This document shows, piece by piece, positions 46,138 to 51,351 of a DNA stretch of 64,000 nucleotides. Each line of letters begins with the position of its first letter. Position 1 is the stretch's first letter. Source of the DNA: Escherichia coli (GTDB taxonomy: Bacteria > Pseudomonadota > Gammaproteobacteria > Enterobacterales > Enterobacteriaceae); the NCBI RefSeq assembly GCF_041248615.1, contig NZ_CP158426.1; one strand, 5' to 3'. Position numbers and translations under genes: made by a program. The notes beneath the pieces are model-generated. The model did no database searches and was not told the DNA's origin. It saw nothing but the letters and a program-made list of their open reading frames with translations.

Positions 46138-46769
46138 AACGACGTGACACCATCGTGCGCTACACCGCGCCGGAACGTATCAACCACTGGATCACCGCCT
46201 TCTGCTTCATCCTGGCGGCGGTGAGCGGGCTTGGCTTTTTGTTCCCGTCCTTCAACTGGTTGATGCAAATCATGGGCACACCGCAGCTGGCGCGAATTCT
46301 GCACCCGTTTGTCGGCGTGGTTATGTTTGCCTCGTTCATCATCATGTTTTTCCGTTACTGGCATCACAACCTAATCAATCGGGATGATATCTTTTGGGCG
46401 AAGAATATTCGTAAGATCGTCGTCAACGAGGAAGTAGGTGACACCGGGCGTTATAACTTCGGTCAGAAATGCGTTTTCTGGGCGGCGATTATTTTCCTGG
46501 TTCTGCTGCTGGTGAGCGGCGTGATTATCTGGCGTCCTTATTTTGCGCCTGCTTTCTCAATCCCGGTGATCCGATTCGCGTTAATGCTGCATTCATTTGC
46601 CGCAGTGGCGTTAATTGTGGTTATCATGGTGCATATCTACGCCGCCCTTTGGGTGAAAGGCACGATTACCGCCATGGTGGAAGGATGGGTTACCAGCGCC
46701 TGGGCGAAGAAACATCACCCGCGCTGGTACCGTGAGGTCCGCAAGACAACGGAAAAGAAAGCTGAATGA
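46134..46769 (+). CDS. fdoI: Formate dehydrogenase-O cytochrome b556 subunit
   Basis: 211 aa, four TM helices, [33 protein letters not shown]... Confidence 0.95.
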
Positions 46770-47695
46770 GTATTCGCATAATCCCGCAAGATGAGCTGGG
46801 TTCGAGCGAGAAACGTACGGCGGATATGATTCCGCCGTTATTGTTCCCTCGGCTCAAGAATTTATACAACCGCCGCGCCGAGCGTCTGCGCGAGCTGGCA
46901 GAAAATAATCCGCTGGGTGATTACCTGCGCTTTGCTGCGCTTATCGCCCACGCCCAGGAAGTGGTGCTGTACGACCATCCGCTGGAGATGGATCTGACTG
47001 CACGCATTAAAGAAGCCAGCGCACAGGGCAAGCCCCCGCTGGATATTCACGTTCTGCCGCGTGATAAGCACTGGCAAAAGCTGCTGATGGCGCTAATTGC
47101 TGAGCTGAAACCTGAAATGAGCGGCCCGGCGCTGGCAGTGATTGAGAATCTGGAGAAGGCATCGACTCAGGAGCTGGAAGATATGGCCAGCGCACTGTTT
47201 GCCTCTGATTTCTCATCCGTCAGTAGCGATAAAGCGCCGTTTATCTGGGCTGCACTGTCGCTCTACTGGGCGCAGATGGCCAATCTGATCCCTGGCAAAG
47301 CCCGCGCTGAATACGGCGAACAACGTCAATATTGCCCGGTATGTGGCTCTATGCCTGTTTCCAGCATGGTGCAAATTGGCACCACTCAGGGTCTGCGTTA
47401 CCTGCACTGCAACCTGTGTGAAACCGAATGGCACGTAGTGCGCGTAAAATGCAGCAACTGCGAGCAGAGCGGCAAACTGCATTACTGGTCGCTGGATGAC
47501 GAACAGGCCGCGATTAAAGCCGAAAGCTGCGATGACTGCGGCACTTACCTGAAGATTCTTTATCAGGAAAAAGAACCGAAAGTTGAAGCCGTGGCAGATG
47601 ACCTCGCCTCTCTGGTACTGGACGCGCGAATGGAGCAAGAAGGCTATGCTCGTAGTTCCATCAACCCGTTCCTGTTTCCGGGTGAAGGGGAGTAA
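46766..47695 (+). CDS. fdhE: Formate dehydrogenase formation protein FdhE
   Basis: 309 aa with paired CxxC motifs ([27 protein letters not shown]). Confidence 0.95.
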
Positions 47696-47876
47696 TCTCT
47701 GACGTTTTCCGGGTGGCGCAGGTCGCCCGGATTACAGTTCATAGGGTGTGACGACACCATCTCTCTTATTCCGCGTTACCACCTCAAGCTATGCTGCCAG
47801 TGCCTGTTTTGCCTCAATTTTCACACTGAACAAATCGATAACAATATCGATATCAAATAGCCAAATCTTTTTGCCA

Positions 47877-48095
47877 TTACCATTCCTCGCGCAGCTTACG
47901 CTGGTATTCGACACCATCTTCCTCACTCCCTTGCCAGATGCCAAAAGCACTGGCTCTTGCTGTTTGCGATTGATTTACCAGGTATTGATCTACCGCTTCC
48001 CGTAATAGCTCCGCACGAGGAAGATTATGCTGCACCTCGAGATCATCAAGTTGCTTAAACAACTCATTCGATAAATTGAGTAAAATTCTGCCCAT
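47877..48095 (-). CDS. yiiF: Ribbon-helix-helix (CopG/antitoxin-like) small protein YiiF
   Basis: 72 aa from the ATG at 48095: [42 protein letters not shown]...; RHH pattern. Confidence 0.75.
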
Positions 48096-48337
48096 ATCTA
48101 TACCTGCCAGAGAGTTCATAAATATCTCGCCCATATCATTTTTGAATCTATGGAGAGAAAAGTACCCTTGTCGAATCTTTAAAGAAAGCGTATTTACGCA
48201 TCACTTTTTATTTTTGCGAGGCGTTTTCCAGATATGATGTAACAGTTGCAGTTATTATAAGTTCAAGTAAAACAGCCTTGTATTAATACCAGAATAAGGG
48301 CATCTGTTTTTTTATATTCAAGAATGAAAAATTTTTG

Positions 48338-48556
48338 TCATTCCTTATGCTCCTTACACTGATCATCAACACCAACTACCTCCCCCTTTTGCCTGCCTCC
48401 CTTTGCTTTACGCACCGGGAATTGCTGACGTTCCAGATATTGCTCTACCGCTTCGCGTAAAATTGCAGATCGTGAAACCTTACGCCAGCCCCTAAGCTTG
48501 TTCAGCCGTTTAATTGCCTCTTCTGATAAATGAAGAAAAACCGTATTCATCGCCAT
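48338..48556 (-). CDS. yiiE: Ribbon-helix-helix (CopG/antitoxin-like) small protein YiiE, paralog of YiiF
   Basis: 72 aa from the ATG at 48556: MAMNTVFLHLSEEAIKRLNKLRGWRKVSRSAILREAVEQYLERQ... Confidence 0.75.
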   Translation of the reverse strand: MAMNTVFLHLSEEAIKRLNKLRGWRKVSRSAILREAVEQYLERQQFPVRKAKGGRQKGEVVGVDDQCKEHKE

Positions 48557-48974
48557 TACCACCACCTTACATATATTACTCATTAATGTATGTGCGAAAA
48601 TTACGCCGAAAAATCATTTAAAAAAAGCGGATTTTTGCATGTCGTTTTGTTTTTGCGAGACGGCATCCAAAGATAATGTAACAGTTGCAGTTATTTCAAT
48701 TGTTACTCAAAAATGGTTTAGTAATAACCCAGGATGGTTTATTACTTTTAATTAAGCGGGGACACATCTACAGAAAAGAAACAACAAATAATAAGAATGA
48801 ATTATGGGTGCTATAAATATTTTATATTCAAGAATATTTTTTTGATTGGGTGTTCATTTGCTTCATCAGGATGGTGTACCCGAAAAAGTCAGCAGCTTTA
48901 CCGCACCAGGGTTTAAGGTGAAATCTACCATTCATAACTGACCGGTCAGTGCCGCACCAACCGGTCTTTAATTG

Positions 48975-49253
48975 TTAGTAGTAGTAAATTTGTGGATAAC
49001 AGTCCGGGAACCAGACGATTCCTTCTGGATCATCCCCCTGCATTACCCGATGACATTGGCGTCGATCATCTGCGCGACGGCGAAGCGTAGTATAGAGCCG
49101 CTTCCATTCATGATCGCCCGGTGTACTGTAGTTTACCCAACAATCCATTGAAGGGTGACGCCATTTACCTGTAAGTGTTGGGATCCCTGAATGATTATGT
49201 GGCTTCGCTTTACCATTACGATCCCTATCTTTACGCGTATTAAGCGTGGACAT
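48975..49253 (-). CDS. Hypothetical small basic His/Cys-containing protein (92 aa)
   Basis: ATG at 49253 preceded by CAGGAGACTAAAA (SD 8 nt upstream). MSTLNTRKDRDRNGKAKPHNHSGIPTLTGKWRHPSMDCWVNY...; no family recognised. Confidence 0.45.
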   Translation of the reverse strand: MSTLNTRKDRDRNGKAKPHNHSGIPTLTGKWRHPSMDCWVNYSTPGDHEWKRLYTTLRRRADDRRQCHRVMQGDDPEGIVWFPDCYPQIYYY

Positions 49254-49314
49254 TTTTAGTCTCCTGTTAAGAGTTCTAAAAATGTGCTTCCTTAAAATAG
49301 TTCATCATTTTCCC

Positions 49315-49527
49315 TTAATTCGCATAGCGTGCTTTTGCACGAATTTCCGATACGCGGGGACCATCATGATAGCGTCGATGCCCACACATCCAACAAGAAC
49401 AAATACAGGGAGTACGAAAGCAAATACCTGATGCTTTTTTGCTTCCATCGCCTGCAGTGCGATAACGGCAGCGGATTTTTTTTAATCGCGCCATATGATG
49501 GCGACGTTCAGCACGATTACGGGTCAT
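49315..49527 (-). CDS. Hypothetical small basic Cys-rich protein (70 aa)
   Basis: ATG at 49527 preceded by TCAGGAGTTTTACT (SD supplied by the R1 repeat hairpin). MTRNRAERRHHMARLKKIRCRYRTAGDGSKKASGICFRTPCICSCWMCGH...; no family recognised. Confidence 0.45.
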   Translation of the reverse strand: MTRNRAERRHHMARLKKIRCRYRTAGDGSKKASGICFRTPCICSCWMCGHRRYHDGPRVSEIRAKARYAN

Positions 49528-49532
49528 AGTAA

Positions 49533-49636
49533 AACTCCTGAGCAGGCGGCACTATGCCGCTTTCATAGGAGTTCTGAATGCTGGTGCTTTCTGTATGGCA
49601 TAACCATGCCTCTAACGGTTAAGTGCCTGCAGCACA
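49533..49636. repeat. ~104-bp repeat R1 (nested hairpin), direct copy of R2
   Basis: AACTCCTGAGCAGGCGGCACTATGCCGCTTTCATAGGAGTT... with outer stem AACTCCT/AGGAGTT and inner GCGGCA/TGCCGC; overlaps the 3' end of the antitoxin gene; ~85% identical to 51350..51453. Confidence 0.8.
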
Positions 49637-49902
49637 TGTTGCGGATCATTGGCAATCGCTCGCAGCAAAGCCTTTGCAGGCCCAGTCGGTGAACGTCGCC
49701 CCTGCTCCCAGTTACGCAACGTGTCTACGCTTACGGAAATAAGTTCGGCAAATTTAGATTGTGACAACCCTGAAGCGCGGCGTATTTCTTTGATTTTCAT
49801 AGCATCAACTTCAAAAGTCCGTGAAGGGTGTCGCGTTCCTTCAATAATTTCATTCATCTGGGCCATGCTGTGAGTCAACCGCTCAAAAAGTGCCTTATCC
49901 AT
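49612..49902 (-). CDS. HTH-XRE antitoxin (HigA-like), second gene of a toxin-first TA operon
   Basis: 96 aa; SD GAGGTGG upstream; start abuts the toxin stop. HTH segment IKEIRRASGLSQSKFAELISVSVDTLRNWEQGRRSPTGPAKALL. Confidence 0.8.
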   Translation of the reverse strand: MDKALFERLTHSMAQMNEIIEGTRHPSRTFEVDAMKIKEIRRASGLSQSKFAELISVSVDTLRNWEQGRRSPTGPAKALLRAIANDPQHVLQALNR

Positions 49903-50214
49903 TTACCACCTCGTATTTAACAACCGGAGCATTGCTTTTTCCTGGGGAGACAGATCATCTTTAATACCCTTACGATAAATAAGCAGTAATCTGATCTCAT
50001 AATGTTTAACCTGATGAAAGTAAATAACCCTGACACCAGCACGTTTCCCCTTTCCTCCTGACACCCATCGAACCTTTCTTAACCCACCAGTTTCAGGTAT
50101 TACCTCACCATAGTCAGGATTCAAGGCCAGGAAAAACTGAAAACGACTGAATTCATCGTCGGTCAGCAGTTTTTGAACATCTTCAGTAAAAATTTCCGTT
50201 TCGATGAAGAGCAT
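49903..50214 (-). CDS. RelE/ParE-superfamily toxin (HigB-like)
   Basis: 103 aa, MLFIETEIFTEDVQKLLTDDEFSRFQFFLALNPDYGEVIPETGGLRKVRWVSGGKGKRAGVRVIYFH...; resembles HigB-type toxins as recalled from memory. TATAAT sits immediately upstream of the ATG. Confidence 0.75.
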   Translation of the reverse strand: MLFIETEIFTEDVQKLLTDDEFSRFQFFLALNPDYGEVIPETGGLRKVRWVSGGKGKRAGVRVIYFHQVKHYEIRLLLIYRKGIKDDLSPQEKAMLRLLNTRW

Positions 50215-50430
50215 AATTATACGCCATTGGCTTAGAGTAACAATCCTTTTTGTACGTCATTGACGTACCCTTGAAACCACTAGCTTACTGATAGTGCTCC
50301 AGCAAAACCACGTCTCTGCCGGGTTTGTCTTTACATTTGCGAGGCGCTTTCCAGATTTTTCACGCCCGTGAATTTCCCTGTATCCATCCAGCAAAAACGG
50401 GTGTATAAAACTGTACATTCATACAGCAAA

Positions 50431-51351
50431 ATGAGTTCTACTATGGCACTGGAAAAAGGAATTGCAGAGTTAGTCGAAGAGTTTATCGCTGCGGGTCGCC
50501 CCTCATCGCGTCAACAAAGTATTGCGCAGCGCAGGGAGGGCTATATCGCCAGCGCTGTCCTTGCGGGTGAGACAGAAACGCGGGTAGATATTCAGACTAT
50601 CGAACTTGAAGGGATGATCTTACGAATAGTGTCACCGCTGAATGCCCCGACATTACTCCCGACGATAATTTATTACTACGGTGGCTGTTTTGTTAGCGGC
50701 GGGTTCGCAACTCACGACAACCAGCTGCGCCAGTTAGCCTATTACGGGCAATGTCGGGTTATTGCCGTCCAGTATCGGCTGGCACCGGAACAGACTTTCC
50801 CCGCCGCCCATGATGATGCGCAACGAGGTGCAGAATTAGTCTGGCAACACGCCGAACGACTCGGCGTTGATAAACAACGGATAACTCTTGCCGGTGACAG
50901 TGCGGGCGGACATCTGGCGCTGGTAACTGCTTTGCGATTAAAGCGTGCTGGCGAGTGGCAACCGGCACAACTCATCTTAATTTATCCCATGCTTGATGCG
51001 ACTGCGCATTTCGAAAGCTACATACGCAATGGTCACGATTACATCATCACACGCGACACTTTACTGAGCGGCTTTGAGATGTATCTGCCAGGCATTGAAC
51101 GCAGGCATCCTGAAGCCAGCCCTCTTTGGCGCGATGATTTCAATGGCTTGCCACCTGTACATATCATTACCGCTGAATACGACCCACTTTGCGATGAAGG
51201 TGAAGCGTTGTATCACCGCATGACAGGGCAAGGAGTGCAATGCACCTGCCAACGCTACCTTGGCGTTATCCACGGATTTTTTCAGTTAGGTGGTATCAGT
51301 GAGGCTGCGCGATCGGCGCTGCGGGATGTGGCCTGGAGAGCGGGAAGGTAA
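50431..51351 (+). CDS. Alpha/beta-hydrolase-fold esterase/lipase (HSL/Aes-like)
   Basis: Oxyanion-hole region YYYGGCFVSGG, nucleophile elbow GDSAGG, downstream catalytic Asp/His candidates. Start ambiguous: GTG 50368, ATG 50431 or ATG 50443, none with a clear SD. Confidence 0.7.
   Translation: MSSTMALEKGIAELVEEFIAAGRPSSRQQSIAQRREGYIASAVLAGETETRVDIQTIELEGMILRIVSPLNAPTLLPTIIYYYGGCFVSGGFATHDNQLRQLAYYGQCRVIAVQYRLAPEQTFPAAHDDAQRGAELVWQHAERLGVDKQRITLAGDSAGGHLALVTALRLKRAGEWQPAQLILIYPMLDATAHFESYIRNGHDYIITRDTLLSGFEMYLPGIERRHPEASPLWRDDFNGLPPVHIITAEYDPLCDEGEALYHRMTGQGVQCTCQRYLGVIHGFFQLGGISEAARSALRDVAWRAGR

Follow-up and report, generated by a model that had tools for sequence, protein, structure and literature searches.

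The 64-kb stretch of DNA analysed here (the window, to which all coordinates refer unless a locus label is given) carries two short genes, yiiF and yiiE, in the fabY-fdhE interval of an Escherichia coli chromosome. The DNA around the two genes is 100% identical to that of isolate 362 (NZ_OW967178). A sequence-only reading of the window had described YiiE and YiiF as tandem ribbon-helix-helix (RHH) paralogs that resemble orphan antitoxins of a toxin-antitoxin (TA) hot-spot. Homology, synteny, a toxin gene remnant, a local duplication, the pattern of selection and population frequencies allowed us to trace where both genes come from. The features on which this rests are as follows.

Up to 47695, plus strand: fdoH-fdoI-fdhE, with the end of fdhE at 47695 (RefSeq and open reading frame (ORF) list).
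47732–47787, minus strand: 3' stub of a vapC pseudogene (vapC nucleotides 305–375, with a 15-nt deletion), original stop codon kept (EVVTRNKRD-----GVVTPYEL*).
47788–47877, minus strand: 5' stub of the vapC pseudogene (vapC nucleotides 1–91), found with blastn (81% over 91 nt) and tblastn (18/27 identities, LFDIDIVIDLFSVKIEAKQALAA) against the VapC of E. coli SX4.
47877–48119, minus strand: yiiF, orphan vapB antitoxin gene (ORF; RefSeq WP_001306649.1; PDB matches 2k5j and 7by2_A; syntenic with vapB-vapC elsewhere).
48145–48174, minus strand: sigma-70-like promoter candidate of yiiF, TCGACA-18-TAGATT, from a consensus scan and alignment only; a candidate, not evidence of function.
48178–48256, minus strand: yiiF copy of a duplicated upstream block, holding a 27-nt motif (48207–48233) and the 20-mer AATAACTGCAACTGTTACAT (48237–48256).
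48310–48325, minus strand: exact 16-mer (TTTTATATTCAAGAAT on the plus strand) just 3' of the yiiE stop codon, with a twin at 48820–48835 upstream of yiiE.
48338–48556, minus strand: yiiE, Escherichia-specific tandem vapB paralog of 72 residues (ORF; Pfam RHH_1; AlphaFold2 and Foldseek; selection counts).
48617–48695, minus strand: yiiE copy of the upstream block, holding the motif (48646–48672) and the identical 20-mer (48676–48695).
50330–50356, minus strand: third copy of the motif, upstream of a HigB-2-like cassette, 73 nt from a LexA-like box and hydrolase-proximal as in Citrobacter.

YiiE and YiiF are indeed paralogs, with 38% identity in BLASTP (E = 9e-11). The peptide that had been quoted for the RHH pattern, VFLHLSEEAIKRLNKL...SRSAILREAVEQYLERQ, is located in YiiE, which matches the Pfam profile PF01402 (RHH_1) with 44.6 bits against a cut-off of 20.5 (E = 1e-11). 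The RHH domain of YiiE comprises approximately residues 3–46, followed by a degenerate tail (residues 48–72) that is predicted to be disordered. In line with this, the AlphaFold2 model of YiiE predicts an extended N-terminus and two helices (residues 12–25 and 29–45), in the order β-strand then two helices, with confidence (pLDDT) values of at least 90 in the core and below 50 in the tail. Foldseek searches with this model returned mostly RHH proteins, including CopG, ParG, PutA, StnY, Arc and Mycobacterium tuberculosis VapB, with a root mean square deviation (RMSD) of ~1.8 Å over ~42 residues. YiiF is tied to the RHH family via its homology to YiiE and to VapB orthologs with a precomputed PF01402 call, and solved structures are available for a YiiF ortholog (2k5j) and for VapB (7by2). 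The 2k5j entry contains two chains of the same sequence, consistent with a dimer. Fold prediction and comparison with hidden Markov model profiles, which had been proposed as checks, therefore bear out the RHH assignment of YiiE by Pfam, AlphaFold2 and Foldseek and that of YiiF through its solved homologs.

The closest matches of YiiF identify it as a VapB. It shares 86% identity with PDB entry 2K5J over 72 residues (E = 6e-37) and aligns over its full length with chain A of 7BY2/7BY3 (7by2_A; E = 3e-25), a VapB that was solved in complex with VapC. Chain B of these entries is named 'Ribonuclease VapC', and the VapC of E. coli SX4 matches 7by2_B with E = 9e-63. Both entries belong to the K. 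pneumoniae VapBC of Kang et al. (J Med Chem 2020), as cited in PMC11117207. The C-terminal segment of YiiF, its putative toxin-binding segment, aligns with the nearly invariant columns of VapC-linked VapBs and differs from that of the vapC-linked SX4 VapB by one residue. Two starts can be proposed for yiiF: an 80-residue form from 48119, which is the RefSeq start, the ancestral one and that of the nuclear magnetic resonance (NMR) construct, and the 72-residue form from 48092 used in K-12.

The gene order around yiiF agrees with this assignment. In SX4, a complete gene for a 124-residue VapC (WP_001129490.1) comes directly after the yiiF ortholog, and its start overlaps the yiiF stop codon. The same interval, with a divergent alpha/beta-hydrolase gene on one side and fdhE on the other, houses intact vapB-vapC in SX4, E. 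albertii, C. freundii, Salmonella enterica, a Citrobacter-like genome and K. pneumoniae, where the order is fabY, hydrolase gene, divergent vapB-vapC and fdhE. As vapB-vapC holds the same position across Escherichia, Citrobacter, Salmonella and Klebsiella, this comparison indicates that a vapB-vapC operon between the divergent hydrolase gene and fdhE is the ancestral arrangement in Enterobacteriaceae. By sequence and synteny, yiiF is thus a vapB ortholog and its product a VapB by descent, whose predicted partner is a PIN-domain VapC. The earlier classification as a CopG/RelB/ParD-type protein holds in so far as YiiF is an RHH antitoxin; its family is VapB, the partner of PIN-domain VapC toxins, and not RelB or ParD.

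The 181 nt that separate yiiF from fdhE still hold the debris of this toxin gene, 146 nt at 47732–47877. In the 5' stub, the ATG overlaps the yiiF stop codon, a 1-nt deletion causes a frameshift, and codon 30 has changed from TGG to TAG. Nucleotides 92–304 of vapC (213 nt) are deleted at the 47787/47788 junction. The window therefore lacks the intact, overlapping PIN-domain toxin gene that adjoins the antitoxin gene at the orthologous site in SX4, E. albertii, Citrobacter, Salmonella and Klebsiella. The statement that neither gene has an adjacent toxin is correct for intact genes and has to be revised for yiiF, which has the vapC remnant directly 3' of it. No vapC trace was detected 3' of yiiE by tblastn, nor was a separate toxin of yiiE's own detectable.

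Across 5426 complete E. coli genomes, a near-full-length vapC is present in only 57, so that about 99% have lost the toxin gene by deletion. A blastn search in 'distant' mode detected vapC-like DNA at one place per E. coli genome and no second vapC paralog; the defence-system libraries of PADLOC contained nothing for YiiE, YiiF or VapC. The lesion in K-12-type genomes is different from that of the window. The middle part of their vapC remnant (L003 3001–3330) is occupied by what we take to be a repetitive extragenic palindromic (REP)/BIME-type element (GCCGGATGCGGCGTGAACGCCTTATCCGGCCTACAA), which does not occur in the window strain. E. whittamii has lost yiiF together with most of vapC. In another enterobacterium (L021/L022 2501–2806), an independent loss of vapC took the form of an in-frame deletion; its 101-residue product is VapB with the final ~23 residues of VapC attached. 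The vapC alleles at this one orthologous site hence range from intact through internally deleted, REP-replaced and fused forms to complete deletions, with several independent deletions and fusions at the locus. We also observed an inverted repeat, ATATAC-N5-GTATAT, across the Shine-Dalgarno sequence of vapB (GATATACTGGAGGTATAT). It is intact in every vapC-bearing locus (L001 3654–3680; L011–L016 ~3480–3500) and disrupted in vapC-less yiiF alleles (GATATGGGCGAGATAT; 48120–48145 in the window). The repeat may act as an operator for VapBC or in translation, and would then decay after loss of the toxin.

YiiE has a far narrower distribution than VapB. Its homologs are found in Escherichia/Shigella only, namely in E. 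coli, E. fergusonii, E. albertii and E. whittamii. In an exhaustive HMMER search of 1.84 billion representative proteins, its closest non-YiiE relative was the enterobacterial VapB of the same locus (43–52% identity). A scan of genome contigs with YiiE yielded four loci, two of which are E. coli contamination, and was of little use beyond E. whittamii. The contaminants are yiiE-yiiF DNA of E. coli: in the Bacillus coahuilensis m4-4 assembly it makes up a contig of 807 nt, and in an 'uncultured Robinsoniella' metagenome-assembled genome another contig. YiiE aligns with 7by2_A in the RHH domain only (residues 3–46; E = 1e-7). Its tail varies between alleles (GGRQKGEVVGVDDQCKEHKE, SDRQRGEVVGVEEQGKWHEE and others) and does not carry the toxin-binding segment of VapB.

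The upstream DNA of both genes was duplicated along with them, as had been noted before. The two blocks are 79 nt long and 81% identical, and the 20-mer is exact in both (0 matches expected by chance). The pair of exact 16-mers, which like the block and the 20-mer is not expected by chance, would mark the approximate left edge of a tandem duplication unit of 440–510 bp. The -10 position of the yiiF promoter candidate aligns with TACATT upstream of yiiE. Given the duplicated upstream DNA, the head-to-tail layout and VapB as the nearest relative, the sequences point to yiiE as a local tandem duplicate of a promoter-plus-vapB unit, and neither a foreign gene nor a second TA module.

In RHH proteins generally, three alternate residues of the β-strand face the DNA. 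In our alignment, these positions of the predicted strand are R/L/D in VapB and YiiF, and T/F/H in YiiE. As all three putative DNA-facing residues are replaced, this exchange suggests an altered operator specificity of YiiE.

The two paralogs have continued to recombine. We found yiiE::yiiF chimeras (L008 4001–4593 and L019 2501–2725 among them) in E. coli, E. fergusonii and E. albertii; in these, the RHH domain of YiiE is joined to the tail of YiiF/VapB at two different junctions, and one reciprocal form was found. Such alleles indicate unequal crossing-over or gene conversion between the paralogs. In E. albertii, a hybrid of YiiE-type RHH domain and VapB tail is followed by an intact vapC. 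Because this hybrid adjoins an intact toxin gene, a YiiE-type DNA-binding domain can apparently serve in a working antitoxin. E. fergusonii and E. coli THO-003 carry opposite-strand genes inserted between yiiE and yiiF (L009 4406–5388; L010 4406–6019; L017 709–2322), which encode a DUF6708 protein and a 246-residue hypothetical protein, or a 149-residue fragment.

The two genes differ in their retention and in the selection acting on them. yiiE is present in 5387 of the 5426 complete E. coli genomes (99.3%), and yiiF in 4658 (missing in ~14%). Substitutions were counted by the Nei-Gojobori method. Over the RHH codons 1–46 of yiiE, comparison of the window with E. fergusonii revealed 8 synonymous and 1 non-synonymous substitutions (p = 6e-5 versus neutrality), and other pairs gave 5–7 synonymous and 0 non-synonymous ones. 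Genus-wide, the domain shows 0–1 non-synonymous versus 5–9 synonymous substitutions, with p values down to 2e-5. The tail codons 47–70, compared between the window and E. fergusonii, have 3.5 synonymous and 10.5 non-synonymous substitutions, which is approximately neutral; the ratio of non-synonymous to synonymous rates (dN/dS) of the tail is ~0.3–1.3. The whole yiiF gene, window versus K-12-type, has 2 synonymous and 11 non-synonymous substitutions and is indistinguishable from neutral. In comparison, vapB of Citrobacter versus Salmonella, where vapC is present, has 20.5 synonymous and 7.5 non-synonymous substitutions over the whole gene (p = 5e-8). By these counts, strong purifying selection maintains the DNA-binding domain of YiiE, whereas its formerly toxin-binding tail is not maintained. 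yiiF decays near-neutrally without its toxin, although its VapC-binding C-terminal segment is almost unchanged.

Upstream of yiiE, the window carries a further TA module together with the hydrolase gene of the ancestral locus.

48975–49253 and 49315–49527, minus strand: two small hypothetical ORFs.
49612–50214, minus strand: complete TA pair, toxin first (PDB and NCBIfam matches).
49612–49902, minus strand: helix-turn-helix (HTH) antitoxin gene of this pair (HigA-2/NadS).
49903–50214, minus strand: toxin gene of this pair, 103 residues (HigB-2 family).
50443–51351, plus strand: alpha/beta-hydrolase gene.

The toxin of this pair matches HigB-2 in the PDB (5ja8/9tv9) with E = 1.5e-19 and the antitoxin HigA-2 (9tv9_A) with E = 8e-9; the antitoxin also scores 60.4 bits with the NCBIfam model NadS (cut-off 60). 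By homology, the pair is thus predicted to comprise a RelE-fold HigB-2 toxin followed by an HTH HigA-2 antitoxin. Its genes belong to a cassette of ~1.7 kb (48673–50329) that lies between two copies of the motif and encodes the toxin, the antitoxin, a 70-residue phrog_4499 protein and a 92-residue hypothetical protein. The cassette thus contains phage-family genes, and no integrase was found within it. The literature knows this cassette as the relE-1/yiaG-1 TA islet, located between yiiD and fdhE (PMC7232551). Most E. coli, including K-12, have kept yiiE and yiiF without the cassette. In different strains, the fabY-fdhE interval contains up to three TA modules: vapBC, the HigBA-2-like pair and a PF09907 HigB/HigA pair.

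Several features of this region merit mention in their own right. The HigA-2/NadS antitoxin may have its operator in a perfect palindrome, TACGTCA-A-TGACGTA, at 50253–50267, ~40 nt upstream of the HigB-2-like start codon. A near-consensus TTGTTA-16-TATAAT (50243–50216) abuts the HigB-2-like ATG and would leave almost no leader. In the intergenic region shared by the hydrolase gene and the HigB-2-like operon, 5–17 nt upstream of the hydrolase start, there is a LexA-like SOS box, CTGTACATTCATACAG (50411–50426). Citrobacter and Salmonella, in which vapBC is the divergent neighbour, keep it at the corresponding position as CTGTATGGATATACAG or CTGTATGAATATACAG. The 16-mer of the window is one base away from the sulA box. 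The hydrolase gene, and perhaps the adjacent TA operon, may hence be SOS-regulated. Between the hydrolase gene and fabY, a 604-residue ORF at 51520–53334, annotated in RefSeq as a transposase and a truncated hypothetical gene, represents a further insertion into the fabY-fdhE interval that is not in K-12.

The sequence-only reading had further pointed out that YiiE and YiiF share an upstream motif with this TA pair. The motif is real: a 21-mer at 48213–48233 recurs at 50336–50356 with one difference, where 0.01 matches are expected by chance. All loci examined have its core, TCTGGAAAGCGCCTCGCAAAAATAAAA, without change at ~100 nt in front of each copy of vapB, yiiE and yiiF, and this holds for genera with a single vapBC and no cassette as well. 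Since genera without the HigBA-2-like cassette carry the motif upstream of vapB, we attribute the sharing to descent and not to co-regulation. The suggested control or neutralisation of the HigB-like toxin by YiiE or YiiF accordingly gains no support from it. The alignments indicate that the 27-nt motif is an ancestral vapB upstream element that was duplicated when the cassette inserted, and it does not signal shared regulation. We also considered an RNA element in the segment of ~130–150 nt from the motif to the start codon and rejected it: RNAalifold gave -0.4 kcal/mol, the z-scores of single sequences ranged from -1.5 to +1.6, and Rfam returned a chance-level match only.

Taken together, we consider it likely that yiiF and yiiE are the remains of an enterobacterial VapBC operon: yiiF an orphan antitoxin gene beside a toxin stub, and yiiE an Escherichia-only copy that appears to be kept as a DNA-binding regulator. 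The starting point would have been a chromosomal type II vapBC operon, flanked by the divergent alpha/beta-hydrolase gene and by fdhE. In the window strain, two deletions (213 nt and 15 nt), the frameshift and the stop codon have destroyed vapC, which leaves YiiF as an antitoxin without a target toxin, possibly with some residual affinity for VapC. In the Escherichia lineage, a head-to-tail duplication of the promoter-plus-vapB unit would have given rise to yiiE, whose toxin-binding tail has decayed. YiiE would no longer act as an antitoxin. Instead, YiiE could be a stand-alone dimeric RHH repressor that autoregulates and possibly acts on the duplicated operator-like DNA upstream of yiiE and yiiF. 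The cassette insertion would have duplicated the ancestral vapB upstream motif. The notion of orphan antitoxins as remnants of a TA hot-spot is thereby upheld, with yiiF as a vapB without vapC, yiiE as its duplicate and up to three TA modules in the interval.

Some points weigh against this interpretation. YiiF itself stays under the Pfam RHH cut-offs (RHH_3 19.0 versus 21.6; RHH_1 14.9 versus 20.5), and its AlphaFold2 monomer, which consists of long helices with an RMSD of 10 Å to the NMR structure 2k5j, was not used as evidence. The dN/dS estimates derive from 70–72 codons and few alleles, and because yiiE and yiiF still recombine, the substitution counts and the reconstructed course of the duplication can both be skewed. 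What the model says about regulation, including any role of the invariant 27-nt motif, is an inference. We found no experimental work on the function of YiiE or YiiF in the literature, where both are listed among the uncharacterised E. coli transcription factors. Moreover, binding by H-NS and weak expression have been reported for the locus, so that both genes may be mostly silent.

A rival reading takes yiiF and yiiE for functionless leftovers of a defunct TA locus that H-NS keeps silent and that persist until they are deleted. The destroyed vapC, the neutral evolution of yiiF in the window lineage, its absence from about one in seven genomes and the several independent deletions and fusions at the locus all fit such a scenario, as do reports that yiiE is H-NS bound and rises only 2.5-fold on SlyA overexpression. 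Yet the RHH domain of yiiE remains constrained while the tail drifts, nearly all genomes retain the gene, and in E. albertii a YiiE-type RHH domain forms the N-terminus of a VapB with an intact VapC. A pure relic would account for yiiF but leaves the constraint on the RHH domain of yiiE unexplained, and we regard this reading as fairly unlikely for the pair. Alternatively, YiiF and perhaps YiiE might be kept as free antitoxins against VapC from plasmids, phages or a genomic paralog. Such an anti-addiction role has been widely proposed for orphan antitoxins (PMC7354431), and the near-identity of the YiiF C-terminal segment to that of the vapC-linked SX4 VapB would suit it. However, searching 72,556 plasmids with VapC and YiiE by tblastn revealed no plasmid-borne VapC of the YiiF-partner family in Enterobacteriaceae. 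The enterobacterial 'plasmid' matches in PLSDB were chromosome-sized or very large (K. pneumoniae, 5.4 Mb; E. coli, 1–4.9 Mb; C. freundii, 425 kb), and the nearest true plasmid VapCs, from Burkholderia and Rhizobium, share ~50% identity. With a single vapC-like place per E. coli genome, a neutral and frequently lost yiiF and a degenerate YiiE tail, we judge this role improbable. As a side observation, PLSDB lists whole chromosomes or pieces of chromosome size as plasmids: three records of E. coli and one of K. pneumoniae (4.8–5.4 Mb), and a further E. coli record of 1.0 Mb.

Three further explanations centre on the upstream motif. It could be a recombination or insertion site that captures small TA-bearing cassettes and duplicates units, so that the fabY-fdhE interval would be a miniature cassette array and YiiE a domesticated transcription factor with a new DNA specificity. 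In one enterobacterium (GCA_902158555.1; L021 913–2402), the HigBA-2-like cassette has the motif (TATGGAAAGCGGCTCGCAAAAGTGAAA) on both sides as a perfect 27-nt direct repeat, and in E. whittamii, which has no cassette, the junction lies inside the motif. The insertions between yiiE and yiiF in E. fergusonii and THO-003, on the other hand, end 25–45 nt upstream of the motif and not within it, so a precise att-like site is not supported; we hold this idea to be unlikely. That YiiE or YiiF regulates or neutralises the neighbouring HigB-2-like toxin through the shared motif is very unlikely in our view. The near-exact 21-mer upstream of yiiF and the HigB-2-like gene and the same orientation of all three units speak for it, but the motif is older than the cassette, being kept upstream of vapB in Citrobacter, Salmonella and Klebsiella without cassette or yiiE, and its copy next to the HigB-2-like gene occupies the ancestral hydrolase-proximal position. 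In addition, most E. coli have both genes and no cassette, the cassette brings along an HTH antitoxin and carries a perfect palindrome close to its start, and no RHH VapB tail is known to bind a RelE/HigB-fold toxin. A sigma-54 promoter (-24 GG/-12 GC), which would make the units enhancer-dependent, is suggested by the GG and GC of the motif TGGAAAGCGCCTCGCA, which are invariant in every copy across genera at the exact sigma-54 spacing (GG-N10-GC). Sigma-70 hexamers within the motif were not convincing by eye, and the consensus scan puts candidates nearer the genes. However, the motif lacks the C at -23 and the T at -14 that are usual. Neither the K-12 chromatin immunoprecipitation sequencing (ChIP-seq) map (PMC4591121) nor RpoN genomic SELEX (PMC8743547) lists a yiiE/yiiF site, and we rejected a sigma-54 promoter as extremely improbable on these grounds. 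That ChIP-seq map did detect the nearby intragenic site in fdoI, IS47 (CTGGCGCGAATTCTGCA; Bonocora et al. 2015), which is unchanged in the window (46287–46303), and a SELEX peak of the RpoS holoenzyme lies between yiiD and yiiE (PMC5493296).

An orphaned VapB beside a diverged duplicate remains the explanation we favour. The decayed vapBC together with the yiiE duplicate explains the polymorphism of the locus, and the identification of yiiF as an orphaned vapB leads to testable predictions: YiiF should bind VapC, and YiiE should bind DNA while its tail should not bind VapC. We found no publication that identifies yiiF as an orphaned VapB or yiiE as a VapB duplicate. Orphan antitoxins and TA islets as phenomena are well known; the gain lies in the annotation and in a clean example, not in a new principle. 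At this one site, the death of type II TA loci can be followed through a compact series of natural alleles.

When comparing the window with characterised systems, the K. pneumoniae VapBC (7BY2/7BY3) is similar in that YiiF matches its VapB over the full length, occupies the same chromosomal position and has the C-terminal ...G(I/L)WQ..EEDG.EYQR.LR.EW in common with it. In contrast to Klebsiella, the toxin gene of the window is reduced to stubs, leaving no functioning TA pair, and the window has a second, diverged antitoxin copy, yiiE, which Klebsiella lacks. The S. flexneri YiiF (2K5J, an NESG NMR structure of the same 80-residue construct, with the molecule name 'uncharacterized protein yiiF') is an ortholog of the window yiiF. 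The window allele, however, departs from the K-12/Shigella type by ~10 substitutions, one of which puts N in place of D in the predicted β-strand. Similarity to V. cholerae HigBA-2 (5JA8/5JAA) is confined to the neighbouring pair, which shares its toxin-first order and matches its toxin and antitoxin. Unlike HigBA-2, that pair resides in a cassette with phage-family genes and not in a superintegron; it is unrelated to YiiE and YiiF.

YiiE resembles stand-alone RHH repressors such as CopG, Arc, MetJ, ParG and omega in its β-α-α module of ~45 residues with an RHH_1 score above the cut-off, and its model superimposes on CopG, ParG and StnY with target-normalised template modelling (TM) scores of 0.7–0.8 in Foldseek. 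Unlike these repressors, YiiE is antitoxin-derived and retains a vestigial tail of 25 residues; it is probably a genus-specific duplicate that was domesticated as an RHH regulator. Orphan antitoxins from degraded type II TA loci have been surveyed in the K. pneumoniae complex and M. tuberculosis (PMC7354431). As in those cases, an antitoxin gene lies beside toxin debris, and the same fates can be proposed (relic, regulator or anti-addiction). In contrast to them, the yiiF site displays a series of decay states at one orthologous position within a single genus, and yiiF was duplicated, with the copy yiiE under domain-specific purifying selection. The locus thus exemplifies an antitoxin DNA-binding domain that is retained under selection after loss of the toxin.

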